Virus record (IMG/VR): IMGVR_UViG_3300009500_000012
DNA length: 20,000 nucleotides
Origin: an uncultured virus (IMG/VR IMGVR_UViG_3300009500_000012)
Lineage: Duplodnaviria; Heunggongvirae; Uroviricota; Caudoviricetes
Direction: 5' to 3' (one strand)
Of the stretch, positions 1,682 to 19,217 are shown one piece after another (the first letter of the stretch is position 1; every line of letters starts with the position of its first letter). The position numbers and the translations under genes were made by a program. The notes under the pieces were generated by a model. It worked only from the letters and a program-made list of their open reading frames with translations, did no database searches and was not told the origin of the DNA.

Positions 1682-2302
1682 ATGAAAAATAATAACAAAA
1701 TAGTAGTCACAAGGCATTTAGACCTTATTAATCTCTTATCAGATATGGGTTTAGTTGACGATTCAACCCCTGTGCTACTACATGCAAATGCAGAAGATAT
1801 TACAGGTAAAGATATTATTGGAGTTGCTCCACCTAAACTTGCTGTATATGCAAATTCTGTAACTGAGGTTCCTCTTTCAATTCCTAAAGATTTAAAAGAT
1901 ATGTGGGATGGAGAACTTCCGTTAGAAGAACTAAAAAAATGTGTTATTGGAGAACCTGTAACTTACAAAGTTGAAAAACTTAATACACGCGAAGATTTTT
2001 CAGAAGCAATTATCACAACGAGAGCGGCGACTTTTCTTCAATATCTAGTACGAGAAAATATTATTGAACGTCGAAGCAAACAGCATCTTGATGCTGTAGA
2101 TAGACAGTTTACCTTAAAAGAAGAAATAGAAGGAAAGCCAGTTTTAGGTCATTTGCCATATCATTTGGCTCAATATGCACTTGATGTAACTTCTTTGGTT
2201 AATTTGTATCCATACGAATTACGTGCTAAGATGCATACATATGAACTTACAAAACAATATACACAAGGATTGTTTACATATAAAGTAAAACAGATGGACT
2301 AA
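1682..2302 (+). CDS. tandem-duplicated Csx16 (Cas_VVA1548)-like domain protein; candidate cyclic oligoadenylate ring nuclease
   Basis: Two ~95 aa repeats (IVVTRH...EDITGKDIIGVAPPKLA...TYKVEK / IITTRA...EEIEGKPVLGHLPYHLA...TYKVKQ) resembling the Csx16 motifs (v-s/tRH, dvViGtLPvhLA, gELs-eel). Confidence 0.6.
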   Translation: MKNNNKIVVTRHLDLINLLSDMGLVDDSTPVLLHANAEDITGKDIIGVAPPKLAVYANSVTEVPLSIPKDLKDMWDGELPLEELKKCVIGEPVTYKVEKLNTREDFSEAIITTRAATFLQYLVRENIIERRSKQHLDAVDRQFTLKEEIEGKPVLGHLPYHLAQYALDVTSLVNLYPYELRAKMHTYELTKQYTQGLFTYKVKQMD

Positions 2303-5383: not shown

Positions 5384-5730
5384 ATCTTCTTATGTAGGCT
5401 TTTGGGCCAGAAATCTTTGGAAAATCGACCTTGCTTTTTCTTTATTTTAAGAATGTATTTAGAAGTATCAAAACATCCACATGAAGAAAGGTATGTATTA
5501 GGTATTGTATTATACTTTCTACATTGTTCATAATGTTCCCCACCATTACGTAGAGGTAGCCATTCTTCTTTCAAAGAATCTTTCCACCTTACTAATCCAA
5601 GATGTAAGATGACTTGCTCACCATGAGAATCAAAAGAACAAGGACGAAAATCTTCATCAATTATTTCATATGCAGGTTTTTTAGCCTCCATAATGGAATT
5701 GCGAATATTTTGAAGTTCTTGTTCTTCCAT
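5380..5730 (-). CDS. hypothetical protein
   Basis: 116 aa; AGGA SD; ATGA overlap with the next gene. Confidence 0.7.
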   Translation of the reverse strand: MEEQELQNIRNSIMEAKKPAYEIIDEDFRPCSFDSHGEQVILHLGLVRWKDSLKEEWLPLRNGGEHYEQCRKYNTIPNTYLSSCGCFDTSKYILKIKKKQGRFSKDFWPKSLHKKI

Positions 5731-5751
5731 ATTATTCCTAAATTATTTAAT

Positions 5752-5836
5752 TGGCAGGGGAGGTGGGACTCGAACCCACGAAGCCCAAAGGCGACAGTTT
5801 TGGAGACTGTTGGAATAGCCGCTATCCGACTCCCCT
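5752..5836 (-). tRNA. tRNA-Trp (anticodon CCA) with long variable arm, CCA encoded
   Basis: AGGGGAG/CTCCCCT acceptor, G73, ACAGT-CTCCAAA-ACTGT anticodon arm, extra arm CGCCTTTGGGCTTC, T arm GTGGG-TTCGAGT-CCCAC. Confidence 0.9.
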
Positions 5837-5847
5837 ATGCAATATCT

Positions 5848-5876
5848 ATATTAACATCTTATGCTAGAAATGTCAA
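5848..5876 (-). promoter_or_regulatory. sigma70-like promoter for tRNA-Trp
   Basis: TTGACA-17 nt-TAATAT with extended TG, 11 nt upstream of the tRNA 5' end. Confidence 0.75.
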
Positions 5877-5877
5877 A

Positions 5878-6027
5878 CTAGCAACATTCATCTGTATCTT
5901 TTGTTTGATGAATATTAAAATCATTAGAATAAATTGTTGGTAAATGTATTTCAAAAGAGGTTGTTTCAGCAATATAATGGCTTAAAATCTCATTTATTTG
6001 TTCTGCTAAAATTTTATTTTCTTCCAT
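5878..6027 (-). CDS. small hypothetical protein (49 aa)
   Basis: MEENKILAEQINEILSHY...ECC*, preceded by AGGA; fills the gap between the nuclease and the tRNA promoter. Confidence 0.45.
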   Translation of the reverse strand: MEENKILAEQINEILSHYIAETTSFEIHLPTIYSNDFNIHQTKDTDECC

Positions 6028-6035
6028 ATCATGTC

Positions 6036-6419
6036 CTATTTATTATATAGTTTATCGTAAAAATTAATACCATGTTTTTGTATGACATATTTAAGAATTG
6101 GTGCCATTTCTTTTCTGCGTAAAATTGTTAAAGGATGAGGAAAGTAGCGATACTTCGCATGTGTTCTCGCTACTTCTCTACCCTTAACTTCAACATAACT
6201 TCCATCTACTATGAAATCAGGAATATAATTATATATTCTGTTTCTAAAAGTATAAGGAAATTTCTTTATGTTTCTTTCAATTTTTTTACCTTGGTCCTCA
6301 CACCAAATTACATATGCAAGTTCCCAGGAACTATCTAAAGACATTCCTTTATAAATGCCTTTATGAAATCTGGACTTTTTCTTTTTGCGACGAACAATTT
6401 TTTTAATTAATCTTTTCAT
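6036..6419 (-). CDS. PD-(D/E)XK endonuclease (TnsA-N / T7 endonuclease I-like)
   Basis: DSSWE...YIPDFIV...YVEVKG catalytic motif. Confidence 0.8.
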   Translation of the reverse strand: MKRLIKKIVRRKKKKSRFHKGIYKGMSLDSSWELAYVIWCEDQGKKIERNIKKFPYTFRNRIYNYIPDFIVDGSYVEVKGREVARTHAKYRYFPHPLTILRRKEMAPILKYVIQKHGINFYDKLYNK

Positions 6420-6442
6420 GCATAATAAATATGCAATTAAAA

Positions 6443-6802
6443 TTAAACTGGTTCTTGTTCGGTTCTCATTTCGATTGGTGCAGTTTCAGGGTTGTATTTC
6501 CACAATTTAAATTTAGACAACACACTTCTTTTGTTTCTATTTGAGAGCGCCTCTGTACAAATTGAAGAATAACCCATATCATTGTCAGGTTCAAAGAACT
6601 TAGTAAATTTAATATCATTTTCTGAAAGAAGTCTTTCTACATCAAAAAGTTCTTCTTCATCCTTGACACCAATCATTACTAAATTATAGTGAGGATTATC
6701 AGTAAATAAACGACCTGCATCCAAGGCAGCATGAATTCCTTGCACCATCTGTTGGGCAAGAGAAATATCCTGTCGGATAAAAATATATGTATATGTTCCC
6801 AT
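6443..6802 (-). CDS. peptidyl-tRNA hydrolase, Pth2-like (likely start ATG 6802; TTG 6853 is an alternative)
   Basis: YIFIRQDIS...QQMVQGIHAA...LVMIGV..E.EL......L....I....F.EPD.....SICTE pattern of Pth2-fold proteins. Confidence 0.8.
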   Translation of the reverse strand: MGTYTYIFIRQDISLAQQMVQGIHAALDAGRLFTDNPHYNLVMIGVKDEEELFDVERLLSENDIKFTKFFEPDNDMGYSSICTEALSNRNKRSVLSKFKLWKYNPETAPIEMRTEQEPV

Positions 6803-6806
6803 TTTC

Positions 6807-6849
6807 TTTCTTTCATTGAATAAGTGATAAAGTTTAACAATGAAAGAAA
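6807..6849 (-). promoter_or_regulatory. RBS-occluding hairpin upstream of the Pth2-like gene
   Basis: Perfect 12-bp inverted repeat TTTCTTTCATTG (6849-6838) / CAATGAAAGAAA (6818-6807), ending 4 nt before ATG 6802. Confidence 0.75.
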
Positions 6850-6882
6850 TCAAGGAGGTCGTGAATGATTGTTCTATAACAT
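6850..6882 (-). CDS. amber-interrupted leader peptide, copy 1 (M-L-*-N-N-H-S-R-P-P-stop)
   Basis: ATG TTA TAG AAC AAT CAT TCA CGA CCT CCT TGA; AAGGAG 14 nt upstream; second copy at 9270-9299. Confidence 0.65.
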
Positions 6883-6904
6883 TAAAAATTATTAAACTCC
6901 TTTA

Positions 6905-7252
6905 TTAATAATCAGAAAAATTAACTTTGATTTTTTCAAGTTCCTCAATGCTCGGACATTCTTCTGGAAGAACATCACATTCATTTTCAGGACTTACTTT
7001 TAATAATTTACCAGTCTTTTTATCATGTAATTCGCTTACATTTGCATCACAACTTCCTGAACAGGAACAACCAGAAGAATAGCAATAGAATACTACCCCA
7101 TCTTTATCAATTCCAATACCTGAATAGGAATGATTATTCCATCCATAATCTTCATTAGAAATTTCCTTAACAATGACTAATTTTTTATCATTGAAAGAAC
7201 TTTCTGGAAGCGTTTGATAGTTTTTCTTAACGAATTTAAGTATGTTATTCAT
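6905..7252 (-). CDS. hypothetical protein (GCSC motif)
   Basis: 115 aa ORF coupled to the upstream gene by an ATGA overlap. Confidence 0.75.
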   Translation of the reverse strand: MNNILKFVKKNYQTLPESSFNDKKLVIVKEISNEDYGWNNHSYSGIGIDKDGVVFYCYSSGCSCSGSCDANVSELHDKKTGKLLKVSPENECDVLPEECPSIEELEKIKVNFSDY

Positions 7253-7791
7253 TTTTGTTTATTCTTGTAATTTCGATTATTAATGATAGACCAACTATAT
7301 TTATTATGCTGAAAATTCAATATATCTAATGTTCTAAAATCTATCTTAGGAAATATTTGAAAATTTCCATTTTCAAATTCTTCTTCAGTCGGTGTACCAA
7401 ATATTGGTTTATCATCTTTGTTTACCCAGCACAATCTATTACCATTGCTATCATGATTAAAAACAATATAACCTGGCTCTAAACCATGTCCACAACACGC
7501 GCTACTTACTCCTGGCAAAATACCTAGACAACCATCTGCGCCATCTTCAATACCGCAAAAACCATCAAATTTTTCTTGCTTTAGATGACAAAAAACACAA
7601 GTTCTATCACCTAAAATAGGACCAGAAAAACCATACTCTACAGGAGTTAAATCCTCACACCATACGTATTCGCCAAATCTTTTGCCTTTTACAGGCTTAA
7701 TTTCAACATTTAAATCTTTAGCGTTATGAGCGAAAACACCTCCGATAATTTCGGCATCTATATGTTTATGATTTTCGTCAAAACAAATCAT
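7249..7791 (-). CDS. Cys/His-rich phage hypothetical protein
   Basis: CxxC...DGCLGILPGVSSACCGHG motif. Confidence 0.75.
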   Translation of the reverse strand: MICFDENHKHIDAEIIGGVFAHNAKDLNVEIKPVKGKRFGEYVWCEDLTPVEYGFSGPILGDRTCVFCHLKQEKFDGFCGIEDGADGCLGILPGVSSACCGHGLEPGYIVFNHDSNGNRLCWVNKDDKPIFGTPTEEEFENGNFQIFPKIDFRTLDILNFQHNKYSWSIINNRNYKNKQK

Positions 7792-8174
7792 TATGCGGAT
7801 TTCTTTTCTACTACTTTTTGCATTGCTGCTGCCAAAAGTTCTGCATTAACTTTATCTAACCCTTTACAAACCGATTGAGAACGCATTTCAAATTGTTCTT
7901 TTTCAAAATCATAAGATGCAGACCAGCCATGTTTGTCCGACCAATGTTCGAAGTTTTGTTCTTTTAATTTAAATTTAACTTCGCTTTGAAGCAATCTACA
8001 AAGGGAATAAACTTCTCTAAAAGTAAGAAGTCCTTTGCCTTTACCACTCTTAACCGGCAAAAATTTTTTTTCTTCAACATGGTAAAATAACGTCCATGTT
8101 TTTTGGTCCGCATTTGCGACAAAATAGGATGGCATTTCAGCCGGATATTTACGTGCTAGTGCTGCGAGTTTCAC
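7791..8174 (-). CDS. hypothetical protein
   Basis: 127 aa; AAGGAG SD; TAATG coupling to the next gene. Confidence 0.7.
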   Translation of the reverse strand: MKLAALARKYPAEMPSYFVANADQKTWTLFYHVEEKKFLPVKSGKGKGLLTFREVYSLCRLLQSEVKFKLKEQNFEHWSDKHGWSASYDFEKEQFEMRSQSVCKGLDKVNAELLAAAMQKVVEKKSA

Positions 8175-8391
8175 AATGCTCCTTAAAAAAATCTTCTGCT
8201 TCTTTTTCTAATTGCTCTTGCTTTTTTAGATACTTTGCATCCACCTCGAAAATAAATACCTTAGCACCATCACCTTCTAATTCAAGTTTGTAATTTCGTG
8301 CTTCATCATATGTCATTTGTTCAGATTCGAGAGGTAACTCAGAATGACTACCATTTTTCCCGGTTGGTGGATAGATTTTAAGATAATACAT
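8149..8391 (-). CDS. hypothetical protein (80 aa; start re-assigned to ATG 8391)
   Basis: MYYLKIYPP...; the longer start in the ORF track overlaps the upstream gene extensively. Confidence 0.6.
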   Translation of the reverse strand: MYYLKIYPPTGKNGSHSELPLESEQMTYDEARNYKLELEGDGAKVFIFEVDAKYLKKQEQLEKEAEDFFKEHCETRSTST

Positions 8392-8590
8392 TTGAGTTAT
8401 CTTTCTTAGCAGGAGCAGAAATTCCACAACTTTTGCAAAAAATCCAAGGCCAATTCTCTGCTGCATATTTTCTTTGAACGCCAGCAATAGAATAAGTTCC
8501 CGTTTTTTGTATAGTTAAACGCATTTCAATTTCTAAAGTTTTATTACTACATTGAGGACAAGATGTTTCTTTAATATCCATAATATCCAT
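8378..8590 (-). CDS. zinc-ribbon protein
   Basis: CPQC...CKSC. Confidence 0.7.
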   Translation of the reverse strand: MDIMDIKETSCPQCSNKTLEIEMRLTIQKTGTYSIAGVQRKYAAENWPWIFCKSCGISAPAKKDNSNVLS

Positions 8591-8596
8591 TTATTA

Positions 8597-8667
8597 CGCC
8601 CTGCACAGGAATCGAACCCGTACCTCCCAGATTAGAACCTGTTATGCTCCCACTACACCAGCAAGGC
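8597..8667 (-). tRNA. atypical tRNA with CUA at positions 34-36 (amber-suppressor-like); CCA not encoded
   Basis: GCCTTGC/GCAGGGC acceptor, G73, D arm GTGT-AGTGGGA-GCAT, T arm ACGGG-TTCGATT-CCTGT. The anticodon arm ACAGG-TTCTAAT-CTGGG is irregular. Confidence 0.7.
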
Positions 8668-8678
8668 ACTCCATAAAC

Positions 8679-8707
8679 ATCATATCATTCTGCTAATGAT
8701 TAGTCAA
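8679..8707 (-). promoter_or_regulatory. sigma70-like promoter directly upstream of the CUA tRNA
   Basis: TTGACT-17 nt-TATGAT with extended TG; 11 nt to the tRNA 5' end. Confidence 0.75.
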
Positions 8708-8740
8708 ACAGGAAGGCAGGACCAACCTACCTTCCTGTTT
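8706..8740 (-). terminator. stem-loop terminator after 8746..9201
   Basis: AAACAGGAAGGCAGG-ACCAA-CCTACCTTCCTGTTT. Confidence 0.75.
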
Positions 8741-8745
8741 AAGTC

Positions 8746-9201
8746 TTACTTAATTAGTTGTTCTAACTCTTTAAGTTTTTGTTTAACTTTTTCTTTAACT
8801 TCTGGACGAAGCGTGATGACAAATTCAGGAAGTCTTGTAGGCTTTGCAGCATAGAAGGTTCCATAAATATCTTCATATTTTTCTCTTGAACTATATACAA
8901 TATTATTTGTTAAAATATAATAGTTGTATTTATTATCTTTGCTATAGGAAAAAGCATCTGATAATTCATTGATTGCTTTTTGCAATTTCCAGTATTTATT
9001 TCGACCTTGAGCCGCATATCCCTGAATTCTTTTTTCAGTTTGTAAGGGCTTCCAACATTTTAAAACATCTTTATCAGAAATAATTAACCATAAAAGATGA
9101 TTCCATGAATGACCAGGAATTTTCTTTTCAAGATATTTCTTGATGGTTTTTTTGTTTTTAAGATATTCTTCTTTAGTAAGAGTATATTCTTTAATTTTCA
9201 T
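8746..9201 (-). CDS. hypothetical basic protein, preceded by the second amber leader
   Basis: 151 aa; GGAG SD partly inside the hairpin at 9211-9265. Confidence 0.8.
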   Translation of the reverse strand: MKIKEYTLTKEEYLKNKKTIKKYLEKKIPGHSWNHLLWLIISDKDVLKCWKPLQTEKRIQGYAAQGRNKYWKLQKAINELSDAFSYSKDNKYNYYILTNNIVYSSREKYEDIYGTFYAAKPTRLPEFVITLRPEVKEKVKQKLKELEQLIK

Positions 9202-9210
9202 TTAATTTCT

Positions 9211-9265
9211 CCAATTTAAAATAATAAGTGTTAAAGTAGTAGTAACTTAGATTAATTTAAATTGG
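9211..9265 (-). promoter_or_regulatory. RBS-occluding hairpin upstream of 8746..9201
   Basis: CCAATTTAAATTAAT (9265-9251) pairs with ATTATTTTAAATTGG (9225-9211) at 14/15 positions, overlapping the GG of the GGAG SD; an inner TAAGT/ACTTA pairing extends it. Confidence 0.7.
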
Positions 9266-9269
9266 TTAA

Positions 9270-9299
9270 TTAAGGAGGTCGATTAGCGGTCTACAACAT
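9270..9299 (-). CDS. amber-interrupted leader peptide, copy 2 (M-L-*-T-A-N-R-P-P-stop)
   Basis: ATG TTG TAG ACC GCT AAT CGA CCT CCT TAA, preceded by TAAGGA about 9 nt upstream. Confidence 0.7.
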
Positions 9300-9318
9300 T
9301 TATGATTGTCCTTAAAAT

Positions 9319-9408
9319 TGGCGGAAAATGTGAGAATCTAACTCACGAAAGGCTCATCACCTCCAGGCGTTTTCAAGACGCTTTCCTCGTACATGCCGGA
9401 CATTTTCC
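9319..9408 (-). tRNA. tRNA-Ser (UGA), long variable arm, non-canonical D/T loops
   Basis: GGAAAAT/ATTTTCC acceptor, G73-CCA, loop CT-TGA-AA, T loop TTAGATT. Confidence 0.85.
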
Positions 9409-9430
9409 AAAATTTATTTTTTCTTTTTAT

Positions 9431-9520
9431 TGGAGGAATCGGCGAGATTTGAACTCGCGACCGTTTTAAGACGGTGTTTCCTTTCCAGGGAAATGGTTTA
9501 AGCCGCTCACCCACAATTCC
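9431..9520 (-). tRNA. tRNA-Ser (GGA)
   Basis: GGAATTG/CGATTCC acceptor, TTTCC-CTGGAAA-GGAAA, long variable arm ACCGT/ACGGT, U73-CCA. Confidence 0.92.
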
Positions 9521-9532
9521 TTGTACTTTTAG

Positions 9533-9543
9533 ATTATACCACA
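9533..9543 (-). promoter_or_regulatory. extended -10 promoter for the tRNA-Ser pair
   Basis: TGTGGTATAAT 12 nt upstream of tRNA-Ser(GGA). Confidence 0.7.
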
Positions 9544-9589
9544 TTTGTCAAGATGTATCGAATCTAAAGTTAATTAGTATTTTATTAAT

Positions 9590-9865
9590 ATGAAACTTAT
9601 AGATTCGGACCCTAATTGGATTATTTCTGGCGAAAACCGTAAAGGTATGGGTATTATTTTTAATTGCCCACATTGTAATGGTAATATTTGCGTTTGGTTT
9701 TCCAATCCTATAGATGGAGGACCACCTGCTCCATCTGAAATTTTACCGTCACCTAGATGGGACAGAACAGGTGATAATTTTGAAAATTTGACTTTAATGC
9801 CATCTATTAATACTTTAAATCATTGGCATGGATTTATAATTAATGGAGAAATTATTAATTGCTAG
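9590..9865 (+). CDS. DUF6527-like small metal-binding protein
   Basis: CPHC...RWDRTGD.FE.LTL.PSI....WHG.I.NG. Confidence 0.65.
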   Translation: MKLIDSDPNWIISGENRKGMGIIFNCPHCNGNICVWFSNPIDGGPPAPSEILPSPRWDRTGDNFENLTLMPSINTLNHWHGFIINGEIINC

Positions 9866-10772
9866 ATGAAGTTACCATCCATTGTGTGTAAGCAGGTTCC
9901 CAAATCAATGTATTTGTATTTCCTGGTGATGTAAAGCATTGCCCAAAATACGATTGACTTCCATTATCTATATTAGATGGTAGAACATCTACCCAATTAT
10001 TTGAATTTGTAAGTAACTTAATATTTGAAGATACAATTGTACTTACCATACTACATTCGCCAGGAGTATAATGCGTTTCAAACATATCCCATGACTCACC
10101 ATTATAGTTATTAGAAGCAGCGATAGAAGTATAAACTAGTTCCCAATTTTGATTTTTATAGTTATAAATTAAAACTCTTGTTGAATAGTCTTGTCCTAAT
10201 AAGATTTCTGTTGTAAATTGTAATGCGCCATTTCCAAAATCTCGCAAATAACTAGAGGCAAATGCCGCATCAATTACTTTATCTGCTCCTGTTCCCCATC
10301 CTGCACTACAAAAATCATAAGGTCTTAAATCTCTATAGGTATCACCTGTTGAGGTTCTCCAATAATCTGTACTAAATTCAATACAACCTCCGCCAAGTTT
10401 TGTAGTTGGAGCGTAAAGATAATTAACTAAAGAAGAATTTGTTGTAGGATTTAATTCAAGATTAGGGTCTGCACTATTATTTGCATAAATACCAATATAT
10501 GTTGGACTACTTATGAGAAATAAACCTGCTTGTCCTCCATCATCCTGAACTGTAACAATAGATTTAGATTGTTCTGTTCCATATTTAGGACCATTACCTA
10601 ATGGTAATGATTTTGGTAGTGGGTTCGGAGTTGATGTGCTAAAACTTGTTTGCAAAAGTAATACAGGCGCTACAGGAGTTTGATATGAACTCGGAGCAGG
10701 AGTTGGAACAGTAGATGGAACTTGATTACACCCAAATAATACTAATAGGCATAATAAAAATATATTTTTCAT
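9855..10772 (-). CDS. lipoprotein with Pro/Ser/Thr-rich linker and beta-rich extracytoplasmic domain
   Basis: Lipobox LFG|C after a short hydrophobic signal; Ser/Thr/Asn/Tyr-rich; paired cysteines. Confidence 0.7.
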   Translation of the reverse strand: MKNIFLLCLLVLFGCNQVPSTVPTPAPSSYQTPVAPVLLLQTSFSTSTPNPLPKSLPLGNGPKYGTEQSKSIVTVQDDGGQAGLFLISSPTYIGIYANNSADPNLELNPTTNSSLVNYLYAPTTKLGGGCIEFSTDYWRTSTGDTYRDLRPYDFCSAGWGTGADKVIDAAFASSYLRDFGNGALQFTTEILLGQDYSTRVLIYNYKNQNWELVYTSIAASNNYNGESWDMFETHYTPGECSMVSTIVSSNIKLLTNSNNWVDVLPSNIDNGSQSYFGQCFTSPGNTNTLIWEPAYTQWMVTSSSN

Positions 10773-11371
10773 GATATAGAATCAAATCTAGATGAATAAG
10801 TGAATATTTCTGTTTTTGAATTTACAGGCGAGTATATATGAAATGGCTTATCAACACTAGAACAATTTGCAGCAGCCGCTTGAAGCGCAATCATTATTTT
10901 TCCCCAAGGCTTACCAAGATATTCTTTTTGTAATGCGTACAAAGCACCTAATGCATATGAAGACCCCGAACCAACAGAAGCATAAGGTACAATAGATTCA
11001 GCCACTTGATAATCTGAAAATATAGTAAATAATCGACCTTGATAACCTACAAGGAAAACTCCGCCTTCTTCTTTGTCTTTTTCTTTTGAAGCAAATCCAC
11101 CATCTTTTAATTTTTCTCTAACTGCTTCAACAAAATCAGTTACCATATATTCAAAAGTATCCTGATTTTCTTTTTGTTTAGGAATTTCCAATTTGTATTG
11201 AAGAAGTTGACCCATCCTAAAAGATGTAGTAAATCCGATTACAAAATCATCCTTTAAAAAGATTTTTTTATCTTTCCTAGAAGTTATTCGTCCATTATCA
11301 GATGTTCCAGCACTATCTGCGCCCATATAAACATCTTTGTTGTCATCTATAAATCCAACTATACAAGTCAA
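10769..11371 (-). CDS. HslV/proteasome-beta-like Ntn hydrolase
   Basis: N-terminal M-T-C-I-V-G, GADS, KIF and VGSGS..A.GAL motifs. Confidence 0.85.
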   Translation of the reverse strand: MTCIVGFIDDNKDVYMGADSAGTSDNGRITSRKDKKIFLKDDFVIGFTTSFRMGQLLQYKLEIPKQKENQDTFEYMVTDFVEAVREKLKDGGFASKEKDKEEGGVFLVGYQGRLFTIFSDYQVAESIVPYASVGSGSSYALGALYALQKEYLGKPWGKIMIALQAAAANCSSVDKPFHIYSPVNSKTEIFTYSSRFDSIS

Positions 11372-11844
11372 AATGAAATATACCCCGTTTCTTCCTTTTC
11401 TTTTAAAAATCCAGGTAAATCTTTTATAGGATTTTCTTCTTTGTAATCAAAAGACTTACTGTGATTATGTCCCCAATCTAATTCAACATCAATTCCGTCA
11501 TGTTCCCATAACATCTTGACTCCATATGGTCGAAGATAATAACCAAATGATTGAGTTGCTTGCTTCTTTTTATCAGAATAAAGTTTATATTTTTCGCTTT
11601 TAATTTTAAATTCTGCTTCAATTTCACGAACAGTTTTATCAGGAAAATCTTTATAATTTGGAGAATATCCAGGATATTTAATTTCTTGAGTATTTTCCCA
11701 ATCTTTTAAAGCATTAAGATAATCTTGTTGTGCTTTTTCAGCAGCAAGTTCTAATTCTTCTTTTGTCCATTCATCTGGAATCCAGACATATGTTCCTGCA
11801 TCATGTTCATTGCAACGAATATGAGTAATTCTTGCTACTTTCAT
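11368..11844 (-). CDS. hypothetical protein
   Basis: 158 aa ORF with SD. Confidence 0.75.
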   Translation of the reverse strand: MKVARITHIRCNEHDAGTYVWIPDEWTKEELELAAEKAQQDYLNALKDWENTQEIKYPGYSPNYKDFPDKTVREIEAEFKIKSEKYKLYSDKKKQATQSFGYYLRPYGVKMLWEHDGIDVELDWGHNHSKSFDYKEENPIKDLPGFLKEKEETGYISF

Positions 11845-11881
11845 ATTTTAACCTTTCCTTTTAATTCAATAATCAGCATTA

Positions 11882-12193
11882 TTATTTGACTCGCTTTCCA
11901 TTCATACTGCACACACAAATACTGCGGCAACCTGAATTTAAGTGTGGTTCATCTACATGATGAACGCCATGACACTCGTAGCAGAATTTATATGGAGATA
12001 GGCTTTCTGCTTTTCGTAGTGCTTCACCACCATCGAATTTTGGATGCGCTACAACTACTGCTCGTTTCCAAGCATGATTGCGAAAAGCACACGTTTCATC
12101 AATGCGATTGCATCCGGCAGGTTTTCCACAGCACAACGGATATTTCTTAGCCGTAGATTTGAACCCAATATGATTAATTTTTTGTAATTTCAT
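11882..12193 (-). CDS. Cys/His-rich hypothetical protein
   Basis: Multiple Cys/His clusters. Confidence 0.6.
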   Translation of the reverse strand: MKLQKINHIGFKSTAKKYPLCCGKPAGCNRIDETCAFRNHAWKRAVVVAHPKFDGGEALRKAESLSPYKFCYECHGVHHVDEPHLNSGCRSICVCSMNGKRVK

Positions 12194-12196
12194 GCT

Positions 12197-12409
12197 CTAA
12201 CCTCTTCCTTTGTTCCAATATTCATAATCTTCATCATTCCAGTCGTCACCTGTAATAGGTTCAGCATTTTGAGGATTAGAATAATAGCCTCCTCTGCCAT
12301 CATTTATCCAGATTCCTTTGTTACAGCCGCAAGTTAAAATAGGTCCATCCCCCATACGACCGTCATAATAGGCTCTTGTTCCACATCGAGAACATTTATA
12401 ATTATTCAT
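12197..12409 (-). CDS. small zinc-finger-like protein (start likely ATG 12409)
   Basis: CSRC...CGC; ATGA overlap with the Nudix stop. Confidence 0.65.
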   Translation of the reverse strand: MNNYKCSRCGTRAYYDGRMGDGPILTCGCNKGIWINDGRGGYYSNPQNAEPITGDDWNDEDYEYWNKGRG

Positions 12410-12855
12410 TTCAAGTTTATCCAATAATCCTGTGGAGAAAAAATTTGTTTATATGTTTGTTCAGAAATGGCAAATAATGGTGAAGGTAATTCATCAATTG
12501 AATACCAATCCCAACCTTCACACTTATTAGGTTCCATATTCAATACATCGCCTTCTAAACCGATTAATCCTGCCATCATGAAATATGTTTTATATAAAAT
12601 GCCGTTGAAAATATCATATTGACAACATATAAAAGAAAGAGTTGAAGCATCTAAAGAAAGATTTGTTTCTTCTTTTACTTCTCTTATAGCAGTATCATAA
12701 ATATCTTCGTAAATTTCCGCATGTCCACCAGGAAATTGATATGTACCATCGCCAAATTTACCTATTCTTTTACCTAAAAGAACTTTACCATCCGAATTAT
12801 AGATAGCAACAGCAACACCTATTTTTAAAAGACCTGTATATTCGGGTTCACCCAT
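12406..12855 (-). CDS. Nudix hydrolase (NUDT15/MTH2-like)
   Basis: Nudix box PGGHAE.....TAIREVKEETNL plus EPNKCEGWDW. Confidence 0.9.
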   Translation of the reverse strand: MGEPEYTGLLKIGVAVAIYNSDGKVLLGKRIGKFGDGTYQFPGGHAEIYEDIYDTAIREVKEETNLSLDASTLSFICCQYDIFNGILYKTYFMMAGLIGLEGDVLNMEPNKCEGWDWYSIDELPSPLFAISEQTYKQIFSPQDYWINLK

Positions 12856-12856
12856 T

Positions 12857-13495
12857 CTAAACTCCTACAAAAATACTGGTTGGTTTATCTGTCCAACCTT
12901 CTTGCCTTTTTTCCAAGTATTGCTTTACTAAAGGCTTAATATCTTTTGCATTAAGCAACTCAGCACGATATGATTCAAAAAATTTGTGCAATTTTGGATT
13001 TGTAAATTCTGACCACTTATCAAATTCATCATAGAACAACCATTCACGCATTTGTGTTGCACTAATATTATGACGTTCTCTTGCTACTATCATTTCGGTC
13101 ATATGTTTTGTTTGTAAAATTAATTCAGGTGAACACTTAAACCAATTATGATTTTTAGGTTCATGACCATAGATATAAATATCCGGCATTTTGCGAGTAT
13201 ATTGTTTTACAGTTAAAAGAACGTGATTCGCCCAATTTTCATCAATTGTTTTTCCGTCAATATCATTGATTGCACCAACAATAACTTCATGACCAGGAAA
13301 AACTTGTTTAATCATATTATGACGAGTAATTGCTGGAAATGGATTTTTAATTGTTCCGTATTCTTGAGCAGAACCAAGAAGCACAAGAACTCTATCAGAT
13401 ACAGATAAAGCAGTATTAATTAAATGTTCATGACCTACATGAAACATTTGCATTCTACCTACAATAAGACTTAAATCAAAAGGTTTATTTGTCAT
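12857..13495 (-). CDS. nadM: nicotinamide mononucleotide adenylyltransferase (NadM-like)
   Basis: GRMQMFHVGH (HxGH), GSAQ...KNPF...R..M and ISAT..R motifs; in a cluster with NAMPT. Confidence 0.8.
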   Translation of the reverse strand: MTNKPFDLSLIVGRMQMFHVGHEHLINTALSVSDRVLVLLGSAQEYGTIKNPFPAITRHNMIKQVFPGHEVIVGAINDIDGKTIDENWANHVLLTVKQYTRKMPDIYIYGHEPKNHNWFKCSPELILQTKHMTEMIVARERHNISATQMREWLFYDEFDKWSEFTNPKLHKFFESYRAELLNAKDIKPLVKQYLEKRQEGWTDKPTSIFVGV

Positions 13496-13738: not shown

Positions 13739-13942
13739 TTAATCTCCTGTCATTCCATTTGGGTTTCTTGGTATATTTGGTATTCCTGCGGTAAAAGATT
13801 CATCTATTCCTTCAATAATTCGCAATTTATATAGTTCATCAAATACTTGCTCATCAAGTTTTAATAATTGCATTCGATAAAGTTCTGTCAATTGTTCAAC
13901 TTTGATTTCTTTGGATTTTTTTAGTGCTTTTTCAAATGACAT
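13739..13942 (-). CDS. hypothetical protein
   Basis: 67 aa, tightly coupled ORF. Confidence 0.65.
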   Translation of the reverse strand: MSFEKALKKSKEIKVEQLTELYRMQLLKLDEQVFDELYKLRIIEGIDESFTAGIPNIPRNPNGMTGD

Positions 13943-14659: not shown

Positions 14660-15207
14660 CTTGAAAGAGAAGGGAATAAAGCATCTAAATTCATAGATTT
14701 AAACACATATTCTTTTAATTTTTCCATTGCATCAGGAAAATTTTCTCCACAAGTAATCATTTTATCATCCTGATAATTAACCACCATCCAAGCAGGAATT
14801 TCGTGTAAAATATCTGTATGAATAGAATCTCTTTTTAATAATATTCTTGGCAATAAAGTAACTGTCATTAATTCAATGACTCTTTTTGGGTCTGGTGGAA
14901 TAATAGGTTTTAAGGTATAAGATTCTTGTAAATGAATTATAGAATGTGGTAATGTTGCAGCAGTAGAGACAAATTCTTTCCAAATTGAATGCGGATTTGT
15001 TCCTGAAAAGATTTTATATGGGTCGTCAAAATCTCGACCTATAGACGCTTCTCTACGCCCAATAGTAATTTGAAAAACCTTAGTTTCTTTGATAGTTGAT
15101 TCGGTCAATCGGTCCCATTTTTTAGTTACTTTAAACCTAAATGAAGGCTGTGAAGCTCCGCTTGAATTATTTTTATCAGCCATTACACAACCATATTTGT
15201 TGTTCAT
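14650..15207 (-). CDS. hypothetical protein
   Basis: 185 aa; TAATG coupling to NAMPT. Confidence 0.7.
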   Translation of the reverse strand: MNNKYGCVMADKNNSSGASQPSFRFKVTKKWDRLTESTIKETKVFQITIGRREASIGRDFDDPYKIFSGTNPHSIWKEFVSTAATLPHSIIHLQESYTLKPIIPPDPKRVIELMTVTLLPRILLKRDSIHTDILHEIPAWMVVNYQDDKMITCGENFPDAMEKLKEYVFKSMNLDALFPSLSSWK

Positions 15208-16700
15208 TAGCCTTGCGCCCCTATAACATGACCTTCTTTATTGAGTAAAATTTTCTTCCCAAAATTCAAGACATTAGATTTAATTCTTTGATTTACTCTT
15301 CTACGAACTTCATCAATTGTGGTTTGATTAAAAAGTTCGCCGTTACGATAAACTAATTGAAGTTGACTTAGTTCTTCGACAGGGCTTGGATGACCCGGAG
15401 TTATAAAAGCACTACTACGGTCAATTGTCTTATATTCTCCGTCAAAATACACTAAATCTAAATCTCCAGACTTTGATTTTTTACCTGGGTCTGTTTTTGG
15501 ATTTTTAGATACATCACGATACACGCCGTTAACTTTAGCAAGTGAAGCCTTATAAGCAAATTTATATGTATCACGGTTACATTGTTGAAGAAGTGCGCCG
15601 CCCATACCGAAGGCTACGTTATCTAAAGAGAAACCTGCATGAATACAAACTCGTTCAATAATTTTATTGATAGTTGCTTCTTCAATACCATCGCCTTGAA
15701 TAACACGAACATTGTTAAGCACCTTGTAACCCTTATTGTTAATTGTATATCCGTATTTGTCTGCTAATCCTTTAACAGTACGTAAAACAATTTCTTCAAT
15801 TGGAGAACCAGAATCAGGTCGGACAACAACTGTTTTTCCTGATTTAATGACTTCTGCTTTAAGTTCATCACCCCAAATATTTTGAACTGCATTGTCAAGG
15901 TCATAACTATCAGATACAACGGCCACCAGAGGGGTATTAAAACGTTCAAGCATCATCCTAAATGCTGCTGCTTCATTATCTTTGCCCCAAGTAGTAATGG
16001 TGCTGTGTTCGGCTGCTGGAATTGAAAATCCAGTCATTGCGCTACCATAATATTTATTAGCGGCAAGCACACCAACAACGGTATCCGAACCCATGAAATT
16101 AGCAAGATGCGCTGCGCCGCCAATAGCGGCTGATTCTCTTGAACTTACACCTCGGGCACCAAAGTCATGAAGTTTAAAGTCAATTTGACTATCTGGGTCA
16201 TCAGAAGTTTTTACAAGTGCTTTATAAATAATTTCTTTAATACGGTTAGAGATGGTCGAAACTGTGATGGGATACCATACGCGCAATAATTGAGTCTCAA
16301 ACCAAGAAGTCATCCAAAATAAACGCGGGTCTGTCGAACGAACTGTTACCAAAACATTATGGGAAGGAACAAAAGTACCTTCGGGTACAGCCTTGATTTC
16401 CAAAGGAATACTGCCATCATATTTTTCAACGACATACATCCAATCTTGATAAGGAAATATACCAGGTCCAATATGAGCATCAACAAATGCTTTGGCTTCT
16501 TCAACATCTGCCTTAGTAATTTTTTGTTTCAATTGGTTGAGAATTAACTGCAATCCAAAAAACAAAGTACCAGGATTTTCGGTCGGGCCTCCACGGCTTT
16601 CAATATAGCAGAGAATTTCTTCTGTTCCCTCTGGATATTGTAAAGGATGAGTAAACTTGTATGAGTCGGTATCTAAAATCGGATTGTGAATATCTAGCAT
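15207..16700 (-). CDS. nadV: nicotinamide phosphoribosyltransferase (NAMPT)
   Basis: DTDSYKFTH, LHDFGARG, SIPAAEHST, VSDSYD, VRPDSG, IQGDG and FGMGGALLQ...RDT motifs. Confidence 0.95.
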   Translation of the reverse strand: MLDIHNPILDTDSYKFTHPLQYPEGTEEILCYIESRGGPTENPGTLFFGLQLILNQLKQKITKADVEEAKAFVDAHIGPGIFPYQDWMYVVEKYDGSIPLEIKAVPEGTFVPSHNVLVTVRSTDPRLFWMTSWFETQLLRVWYPITVSTISNRIKEIIYKALVKTSDDPDSQIDFKLHDFGARGVSSRESAAIGGAAHLANFMGSDTVVGVLAANKYYGSAMTGFSIPAAEHSTITTWGKDNEAAAFRMMLERFNTPLVAVVSDSYDLDNAVQNIWGDELKAEVIKSGKTVVVRPDSGSPIEEIVLRTVKGLADKYGYTINNKGYKVLNNVRVIQGDGIEEATINKIIERVCIHAGFSLDNVAFGMGGALLQQCNRDTYKFAYKASLAKVNGVYRDVSKNPKTDPGKKSKSGDLDLVYFDGEYKTIDRSSAFITPGHPSPVEELSQLQLVYRNGELFNQTTIDEVRRRVNQRIKSNVLNFGKKILLNKEGHVIGAQG

Positions 16701-18846: not shown

Positions 18847-18921
18847 TGGTGTCCCTATTAAGAATCGAACTTAAACTTCAGCCTTCGGAAGACCGCGCAC
18901 TATCCATTATACTATAGGGAC
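18847..18921 (-). tRNA. tRNA-Arg (CCG)
   Basis: GTCCCTA/TAGGGAC acceptor, A20, CGGTC-TTCCGAA-GGCTG, TTCGATT loop, A73-CCA. Confidence 0.93.
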
Positions 18922-19217
18922 GATTCCAAATTCTCTTGTTTCTTTTCTTTAATATAAAGATTGTAAACTGAATTACATTTATCAATAACTACTTGAGCAG
19001 ATTTTACATGTCCCAAGTCAATAAATAATGTTTCTGGTCCGTTTCCAAGAGCGTGTTCATAACGTCGAGTACGAACTAAACCATCTTCTTGCTTATCTCC
19101 GTATTCTCCTCTAACTCGAACATGAAGACTTGTCATTCTGCTATATGGTGTAATTTCTTCTACATCTTTAGAATACTTTTCAAAAAGACGTTCTGGATAA
19201 TTCTTTAATGCTTTCAT
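18912..19217 (-). CDS. hypothetical protein (stop codon inside tRNA-Arg)
   Basis: 101 aa; AAGGA SD. Confidence 0.7.
   Translation of the reverse strand: MKALKNYPERLFEKYSKDVEEITPYSRMTSLHVRVRGEYGDKQEDGLVRTRRYEHALGNGPETLFIDLGHVKSAQVVIDKCNSVYNLYIKEKKQENLESSL

Follow-up and report, generated by a model that had tools for sequence, protein, structure and literature searches.

Can a phage that ends its genes freely with TAG also encode a tRNA that reads UAG? The question is raised by a tRNA gene on the minus strand at 8597-8667 of a stretch of 20,000 nucleotides of DNA (the window). The anticodon loop of this tRNA can be read as CUA, and its anticodon stem is ambiguous. The best explanation, which we hold tentatively, is that this is an amber-suppressor-type tRNA, built on a scaffold of Trp and CUA tRNAs and having a compromised anticodon arm. 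Suppression itself is putative; judged from its sequence, the tRNA would be weak at best as a suppressor, and is possibly a relic.

Suppressor tRNAs have been proposed as the first step in a change of the genetic code of phages. A suppressor-type tRNA found where TAG stays a free stop, and outside the gut where suppressor-tRNA phages are best known, would therefore be a snapshot of such a change, or of its reversal.

The window and its genes

The window has a GC content of ~30-35%, and is densely filled with short ORFs, the majority of which lie on the minus strand. We read it as part of a large uncultured phage. The public runs that contain the stretch are moss metagenomes, and a soil metagenome contains a relative. 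The genes that are used below are the following.

15207-16700: nicotinamide phosphoribosyltransferase (NAMPT)
12857-13495, minus strand: NMN adenylyltransferase-type cytidylyltransferase (NMNAT)
12406-12855, minus strand: Nudix hydrolase
5755-5836, minus strand: tRNA-Trp(CCA), found by Rfam and ARAGORN
8597-8667, minus strand: the tRNA in question, 71 nt with a G73 discriminator and without encoded CCA, found by Rfam (RF00005) and ARAGORN
9434-9520, minus strand: tRNA-Ser(GGA), found by Rfam and ARAGORN
18850-18921, minus strand: tRNA-Arg(CCG), found by Rfam and ARAGORN

Other recognisable genes encode an HslV-family peptidase, Hsp20 and a Clp N-domain fragment, along with several PHROG families of unknown function. 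ORF 1682-2302 (plus strand, 206 aa) matches Pfam PF09652, 'putative CRISPR-associated protein Cas_VVA1548', with E = 3.2e-12 in this phage context.

The proteins of the window are less than 60% identical to those of cultured phages, the best being ~50% among the matches listed, and a megablast search of phage records with positions 8000-12000 gave no match. A flanking protein of 151 aa has one relative of 90% identity in a set of 5.8 billion proteins, where it comes without genomic context, and none in IMG/VR. A search with NAMPT found one IMG/VR locus (L062, 42% identity), where the tRNAs are those for Ile, Thr and Gln. This locus is not a close relative.

A tRNA gene with a defect confined to the anticodon stem

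Rfam and ARAGORN agree on four tRNA genes in the window, all on the minus strand. The gene at 8597-8667 scores 41.5 bits with RF00005 (E = 6.7e-06), above the gathering score of 29 and thus within the family, although lowest of the four, the others scoring between 50.7 and 55 bits. All the pairs of the acceptor (7/7), D (4/4) and T (5/5) stems are formed, the acceptor stem beginning with G1-C72, C2-G71 and C3-G70. The conserved nucleotides U8, A14, G18, G19 and A21 are intact, together with the GGTTCGATTCC T-loop. The first-pass annotation had proposed a real tRNA with good acceptor, D and T arms and no encoded CCA, and this is confirmed on both counts. The gene is followed by TAATAA, whereas CCA is present after the other three tRNA genes. 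The defect is confined to the anticodon stem. ARAGORN, which had been recommended as a check, calls the gene as 'tRNA-??? (ct)' with the label '?(Arg|Pyl)', a 6-nt loop ttctaa and a four-pair stem CAGG/TCTG. A contig from a second run (X2), possibly sampled in one campaign with the source, spans 8403-9300 with 0 differences from the window, so that a one-base assembly error is unlikely.

The anticodon arm can be drawn in three registers.

8631-8637, minus strand: 7-nt anticodon loop UUCUAAU in the homology register, with CUA at 8633-8635
8632-8637, minus strand: 6-nt loop UUCUAA of the slipped register
8631-8638, minus strand: 8-nt loop GUUCUAAU, formed if the closing G-U pair opens

In the homology register A26 is followed by ACAGG (27-31), the loop UUCUAAU (32-38), CUGGG (39-43) and then AGGU. 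Numbering from the 5' side gives U32 U33 C34 U35 A36 A37 U38 as the loop and CUA as the anticodon. In the Rfam alignment the stem ACAGG/CUGGG has three standard pairs out of five, with A27 opposite G43 and A29 opposite G41, and however the arm may fold, these two internal mismatches in the canonical register remain a fact of the sequence. Slippage by one base creates four pairs and brings the variable loop to the standard 5 nt. This is the fold drawn by ARAGORN, in which CUA is absent from positions 34-36. In the 8-nt loop (G U UCUA A U), U33 and A37 flank UCUA and the stem is reduced to three Watson-Crick pairs. The ambiguity had been described correctly beforehand, both as a 7-nt loop with 3/5 pairs set against CAGG/TCTG with a 6-nt loop, and as an 8-nt alternative presenting UCUA. 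Such an arm illustrates why tRNA finders assign no anticodon, and surveys of suppressor tRNAs can consequently miss or misname tRNAs of this kind.

With the other arms held fixed, the calculated cloverleaf energies are -16.2, -20.1 and -19.9 kcal/mol for the 7-, 6- and 8-nt loops respectively. In the corresponding ensemble the slipped pairs have a probability of 0.84-0.91, and the canonical pairs one of at most 0.002. As a control we folded 46 other distinct tRNAs, left from 107 ARAGORN calls on removal of duplicates and unparsable structures. The mean probability of the annotated anticodon stem was at least 0.5 in 34 of these, but below 0.3 in 12. Since these 12 ordinary tRNAs fail the same calculation it cannot decide the register, and thermodynamics was dropped for this purpose. 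A search of the literature on six-nucleotide anticodon loops found nothing relevant.

Spacing in scaffold relatives favours a CUA register

The window's own contig is absent from both IMG/VR and the JGI metagenome contigs. Exact and partial patterns of the tRNA gave 0 matches in IMG/VR, and a pattern specific to it gave 0 matches in JGI metagenome contigs. No homologue was thus available from which conservation or covariation could be judged. The scaffold of the tRNA, comprising D-arm UGGUGUAGUGGNAGCA, the 4-nt variable loop AGGU and T-arm NCGGGUUCGAUUC, is more widely found. The top match by E-value in the phage database is a tRNA on the unannotated gut phage contig MT836538 (78.8% over 52 nt, E = 4e-3), which ARAGORN reads as CUA with a perfect stem. 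From the positions common to the two tRNAs (the D-arm, AGGU and the 5' half of the T-arm) we constructed a body pattern, in which a gap of 15-25 nt was allowed between the two conserved blocks. It matched 43 loci in IMG/VR (42 CUA and one Trp) and four in GTDB genomes (two CUA and two with an 8-nt loop, 'agcc'). With one extra C, which excludes the gut family, it matched seven loci in metagenomes, of which four are Asp(GUC), two 'agcc' and one 'cgtg'.

The gap is 19 nt in 49 of these 54 scaffold relatives, all of which have 7-nt loops (44 CUA, one Trp and four Asp). It is 20 nt in the five with 8-nt loops, and 18 nt in none. In the window tRNA the gap is 19 nt and the variable loop is still AGGU. 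The spacing is therefore that of the relatives with 7-nt loops, indicating that there has been no net deletion and that the anticodon is CUA in the homology register, in agreement with the earlier count from the 5' side. The number of CUA anticodons, 44, is not independent support because the pattern was partly built from a CUA tRNA, and because one near-identical gut-phage family contributes 42 of the 43 IMG/VR loci. On the sequence comparison it is the spacing that independently supports a CUA register. The first-pass annotation had advised aligning homologues to fix the register; scaffold relatives have served this purpose and give CUA, while no true homologue was found.

Other phages use the same body for tRNA-Trp, tRNA-Asp and amber-suppressor tRNA(CUA). 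Among those BLAST matches covering at least 65% of the query that were checked by ARAGORN or annotation, Trp(CCA) is the class most often seen, with Glu, Cys, Met, Val and CUA tRNAs coming next. The loops of the Trp relatives are UUCCAAN, and a single change of C35 to U35 converts CCA into CUA (UUCUAAN). U11-A24, U13-G22 and G73 had been taken as hints of a Glu/Gln-type identity. They are common to the Trp, Asp, Glu, Cys and CUA tRNAs of this scaffold, and as shared features they are not evidence for such an identity, which we have rejected. Scaffold relatives with normal anticodons also show imperfect stems.

The five natural tRNAs with 8-nt loops on the D-arm/AGGU/T scaffold (L050, L051, L053, L054 and L055) are given the anticodons 'agcc' and 'cgtg' by ARAGORN. 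L050 and L051 come from Actinomycetota MAGs. The neighbours of L053, read by eye, are ordinary cellular genes encoding an aminopeptidase, a cobalamin adenosyltransferase and a 2OG oxygenase. In the gut-phage tRNA(CUA) family (L005-L047 from IMG/VR, plus L048-L049) the 3' strand of the T-arm is GATTCGGTGG or GATTCGATGG, in which no normal five-pair T stem is seen by eye, and CCA is encoded in some copies and absent in others.

The gene has promoter-like signals of its own

The sequence around the tRNA gene contains the following elements.

8679-8707, minus strand: TG-extended, sigma-70-like promoter (TTGACT-17-TATGAT), its end lying 11 nt upstream of the tRNA
9533-9561, minus strand: TG-extended site before tRNA-Ser
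5848-5876, minus strand: TG-extended site before tRNA-Trp
8704-8742, minus strand: terminator-like hairpin of 17 pairs, directly after the stop of ORF 8746-9201, its 3' arm overlapping the -35 box
8378-8590, minus strand: zinc-ribbon ORF of 70 aa, starting 6 nt past the 3' end of the tRNA

Promoter-like sites taken all together are not enriched (19 found against 19.4 expected), but there are just three TG-extended -10 sites in the region 5500-9800, and each lies 11-12 nt upstream of a tRNA gene. The signals of the tRNA in question thus resemble those of the neighbouring normal tRNAs. tRNA-Arg(CCG) has no TG-extended site, and abuts its upstream ORF. An own promoter had been claimed beforehand, and a good candidate for it is present; from these signals the tRNA gene looks to be expressed. 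The claim of an upstream terminator fares less evenly. The hairpin is strong (-27.5 kcal/mol, z = -6.86, with 0/200 shuffles folding as well), but a consensus terminator scan did not call it. The same scan found no terminator-like site on the minus strand from the tRNA down to 5500. With the next ORF only 6 nt away, this makes plausible the co-transcription with downstream genes that the first-pass annotation had suggested, and ORF 8378-8590 and the tRNA are probably on one transcript. Family matches of that ORF are weak, with E = 0.0042 for Zn_ribbon_3 and E = 0.0022, below the cut-off, for the Lar family.

The relative in the soil run (X4) is 90-99% alike and covers 8709-9300. One X4 contig stops short of the tRNA side; both of its ends match 8775-8804, giving a layout that is uninterpretable. 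Contigs from RNA runs do not extend over the tRNA, which says nothing for or against it.

TAG is an ordinary stop within the window

We selected 37 ORFs by hand from 66, taking the longest non-overlapping ones in place of a gene caller. Their stops are TAA in 22, TAG in nine and TGA in six, and in all the minus-strand frames TAG makes up 263 of 1348 stop triplets (19.5%). TAG is not depleted as a stop within the window. That TAG ends many ORFs had been stated before, and all seven of those named are included in the nine. Two of the TAG-ended genes have family matches, and in both the protein ends at or near the end of the profile; the DUF6527 protein ends at profile position 63/63, and the GT9 protein leaves 41 residues against 44 profile positions. 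Translation of the window with TAG=Q creates no sensible gene fusion, but only tails, spacers or runs into neighbours, and there is no in-frame TAG in the genes of these 20 kb. The tails that would be added by read-through are 2-104 aa in length with a median of 22. These are not short, and so give no sign of back-up stops. There is no release factor or synthetase gene near the tRNA.

The first-pass annotation had viewed the tRNA as acting on amber leaders. Upstream of 36 ORFs, the in-frame stop nearest to the start is TAG seven times, TAA 20 times and TGA nine times, so that TAG is not enriched there. With no sensible fusions either, the proposal is left without support. The window argues against general reassignment of TAG. 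The earlier statement that the genome is not recoded therefore holds for these 20 kb, while its extension to the whole genome is unsupported.

Upstream of ORF 6443-6853, at 6860-6905 on the minus strand, a Shine-Dalgarno sequence AAGGAG is followed by a mini-ORF, ATG TTA TAG. Neither read-through nor a +1 shift on this mini-ORF reaches the frame of ORF 6443-6853, for which the candidate starts are TTG at 6853, an internal ATG, and ATT 7 nt past the Shine-Dalgarno sequence.

A study of recoded phages (10.1101/2021.08.26.457843) bears on the suppressor reading in both directions. It describes replication and early genes as remaining in the standard code, the recoded stops being concentrated in structural and lysis genes. 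It also describes low-GC phages as acquiring suppressor tRNAs, sometimes under the standard code, and a standard-code relative of recoded phages as able to carry such a tRNA already. On this account the suppressor reading stays open for the rest of the genome. The same study has the stop that is due for recoding as usually depleted in standard-code relatives, and this speaks against a suppressor here.

A putative weak suppressor

If the tRNA is an amber suppressor, it might function in the following way. Transcription would begin at its own extended -10 promoter, the tRNA being the 5' element of a multi-gene transcript from which it would be excised by RNase P and 3' nucleases. CCA would be added by a CCA-adding enzyme, either that of the host or a phage candidate at 3-314. 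The latter had been named outright as a CCA enzyme; it does have matches in that direction, but they are weak (PF13735 with E = 9e-4, below its cut-off, and PDB 3wfo with E = 0.0076). A host synthetase would charge it, Gln and Trp being the likeliest amino acids. UAG would then be read inefficiently, with only 3/5 pairs in the canonical stem and competition from the helix with the one-base slip and 6-nt loop. The targets, if any, might be TAG codons outside the window, for example in late genes, or there might be low-level read-through of TAG stops.

The suppressor tRNA(CUA) of code-15 phages and their standard-code relatives (10.1101/2021.08.26.457843) is similar in several respects. The window tRNA also has CUA in the homology register, and the window phage is likewise low in GC, with the tRNA lying amid standard-code genes. 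It differs in its 3/5 stem pairs and competing slipped helix. In contrast to code-15 phages as described there, the window has no in-frame TAG, no depletion of TAG as a stop (9/37), and no release factor or synthetase gene nearby, and the habitat is moss or soil and not gut. With the gut-phage CUA family the window tRNA shares the D-arm, the AGGU variable loop and the 5' half of the T-arm.

A comparison may also be made with classical suppressors. The E. coli amber suppressor su+7 is tRNA-Trp with CCA changed to CUA, charged mostly with Gln, while supE is tRNA-Gln with CUG changed to CUA. The window loop UUCUAAU is the same as that of supE. Like su+7 the window tRNA points to a Trp body, its best long matches being Trp(CCA) with UUCCAAN loops, and the G73 discriminator is shared. 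Its acceptor stem, starting G1-C72, C2-G71, C3-G70, differs from those of su+7 and supE.

Other explanations

The main rival to the amber-suppressor reading, and one that we regard as rather unlikely, is a relic or non-decoding tRNA-like element. Its anticodon arm would have drifted, and it might be decaying or act as an RNase P/RNase Z signal that sets the 5' end of the downstream mRNA. The defective canonical stem with its predicted 6-nt-loop fold is consistent with this, as are the lowest Rfam score of the four tRNAs, its being the sole one without encoded CCA, the start of the next ORF only 6 nt away without an intervening terminator, and the lack of any sign of TAG read-through within the window. 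Yet the other arms and the conserved tertiary nucleotides are all intact, and a strong promoter-like site is kept, as with the normal tRNAs. Moreover ordinary tRNAs often have anticodon stems that are predicted to be weak (12/46 below 0.3 in the control), and imperfect stems occur in scaffold relatives with normal anticodons. It is improbable that the gene is instead a tRNA-Arg(UCU) that has lost one base from an ancestral loop NUUCUAA, with a variable loop GAGGU, leaving a pseudogene or a poor reader of AGA. The first-pass annotation had named this as the scenario that would overturn its own. The ARAGORN label includes Arg, the string UUCUAA is shared with phage tRNA-Arg(UCU), the 3' half (query 27/31-63) is 82-85% alike, and the slipped register yields four pairs with a standard 5-nt variable loop. 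AGA is also the commonest Arg codon of the window (86 of 212, counted in 5336 codons of 31 ORFs). These BLAST matches are, however, short and restricted to the 3' half, with E = 2-7, and the body is that of another scaffold, on which none of the 54 relatives is an arginine tRNA. The block spacing is equal to that of the 49 canonical relatives with a 4-nt AGGU variable loop. UCU cannot be placed at 34-36 in a 7-nt loop, only a 6- or 8-nt loop presenting it. A20 is a major identity element for ArgRS in bacteria. It is present in 4/4 arginine tRNAs compared (the window tRNA-Arg(CCG) and three phage or metagenome tRNA-Arg(UCU)), whereas the D-loop AGUGGGA of the tRNA in question has G20. This argues against a damaged tRNA-Arg(UCU), and since comparison with the scaffold relatives shows no net shortening, we disfavour that scenario.

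Some proposals retain a function other than simple UAG decoding. The tRNA might be a decoy or escape tRNA directed against host anticodon nucleases, or have another non-decoding role, but this too has a low probability. Escape from anticodon nucleases by phage tRNAs whose anticodon loops are altered has been described (PMC10264068), and the tRNA set of the window is odd, with its long-arm tRNA-Trp and a tRNA-Arg(CCG) where CGG does not occur in 5336 codons. Against this, the context lacks any defence or nuclease element, no conserved family of RNAs of this kind turned up, and since a CUA anticodon occurs in no host tRNA there would be nothing to mimic. Least probable of all, if by little, is a tRNA with an 8-nt loop (G U [UCUA] A U) which would decode UAGA as a quadruplet and so shift the frame by +1, the candidate target being the TAG-A-ATG junction of NMNAT and Nudix. 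The 8-nt form lies only 0.2 kcal/mol above the 6-nt form, U33 and A37 flank UCUA, and natural 8-nt-loop tRNAs exist on the same scaffold (5/54). Of four TAG-A stops, only that of NMNAT leads into a long +1 frame without stops (149 aa). The product read with TAGA=X is covered to at least 80%, as one place, in 198 of 363 matching phage records; the matches are single pieces in all 30 rows listed, and matching records are annotated as bifunctional NMN adenylyltransferase/Nudix hydrolase. If true, four-base reading would thus restore a fused bifunctional enzyme that is found in other phages. But the hypothesis was formed after inspection of the data, and the junction falls in an insert of 13 residues that contains its own GGAG, stop and ATG, making it an ordinary coupled two-gene junction. 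A junction of like kind, TAA-T-ATG, is present at 13739, so the layout is common, and A follows TAG in four of the nine TAG stops, as expected from base composition. +1 frameshift-suppressor tRNAs with 8-nt loops and engineered UAGN decoders (PMC4764823) keep a five-pair stem. The window tRNA can similarly form GU-UCUA-AU with U33 and A37 in place, but its stem would have only three Watson-Crick pairs, and the target is only a candidate.

A switch between registers, which we also think improbable, would combine these forms. Most of the tRNA would be in an inactive slipped helix with the 6-nt loop, and a minority would adopt the 7-nt CUA or 8-nt UCUA loop, perhaps conditionally, in response to temperature, base modification or a phage factor. 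If true, this would allow dosed, conditional read-through or a +1 shift in a phage with about a quarter of its genes ended by TAG, and one possible product would be a fused NMNAT-Nudix protein translated through TAGA at 12856-12859 as a four-base codon.

Other tRNA genes of the window

tRNA-Trp(CCA) at 5755-5836 (minus strand) has a variable arm of 13-14 nt and a class II-like build, with A1-U72, G73 and the loop CUCCAAA. In the phage database it is matched best by tRNA-Tyr genes from jumbo phages (82% over 68 nt, E = 1e-10) and by the long tRNA-Trp genes of the Vibrio phages VBP47 and VBP32. tRNA-Arg(CCG) is encoded at 18850-18921 (minus strand), yet CGG accounts for 0/212 Arg codons. The TAG stop of ORF 18912-19217 falls inside the tRNA-Arg(CCG) gene.
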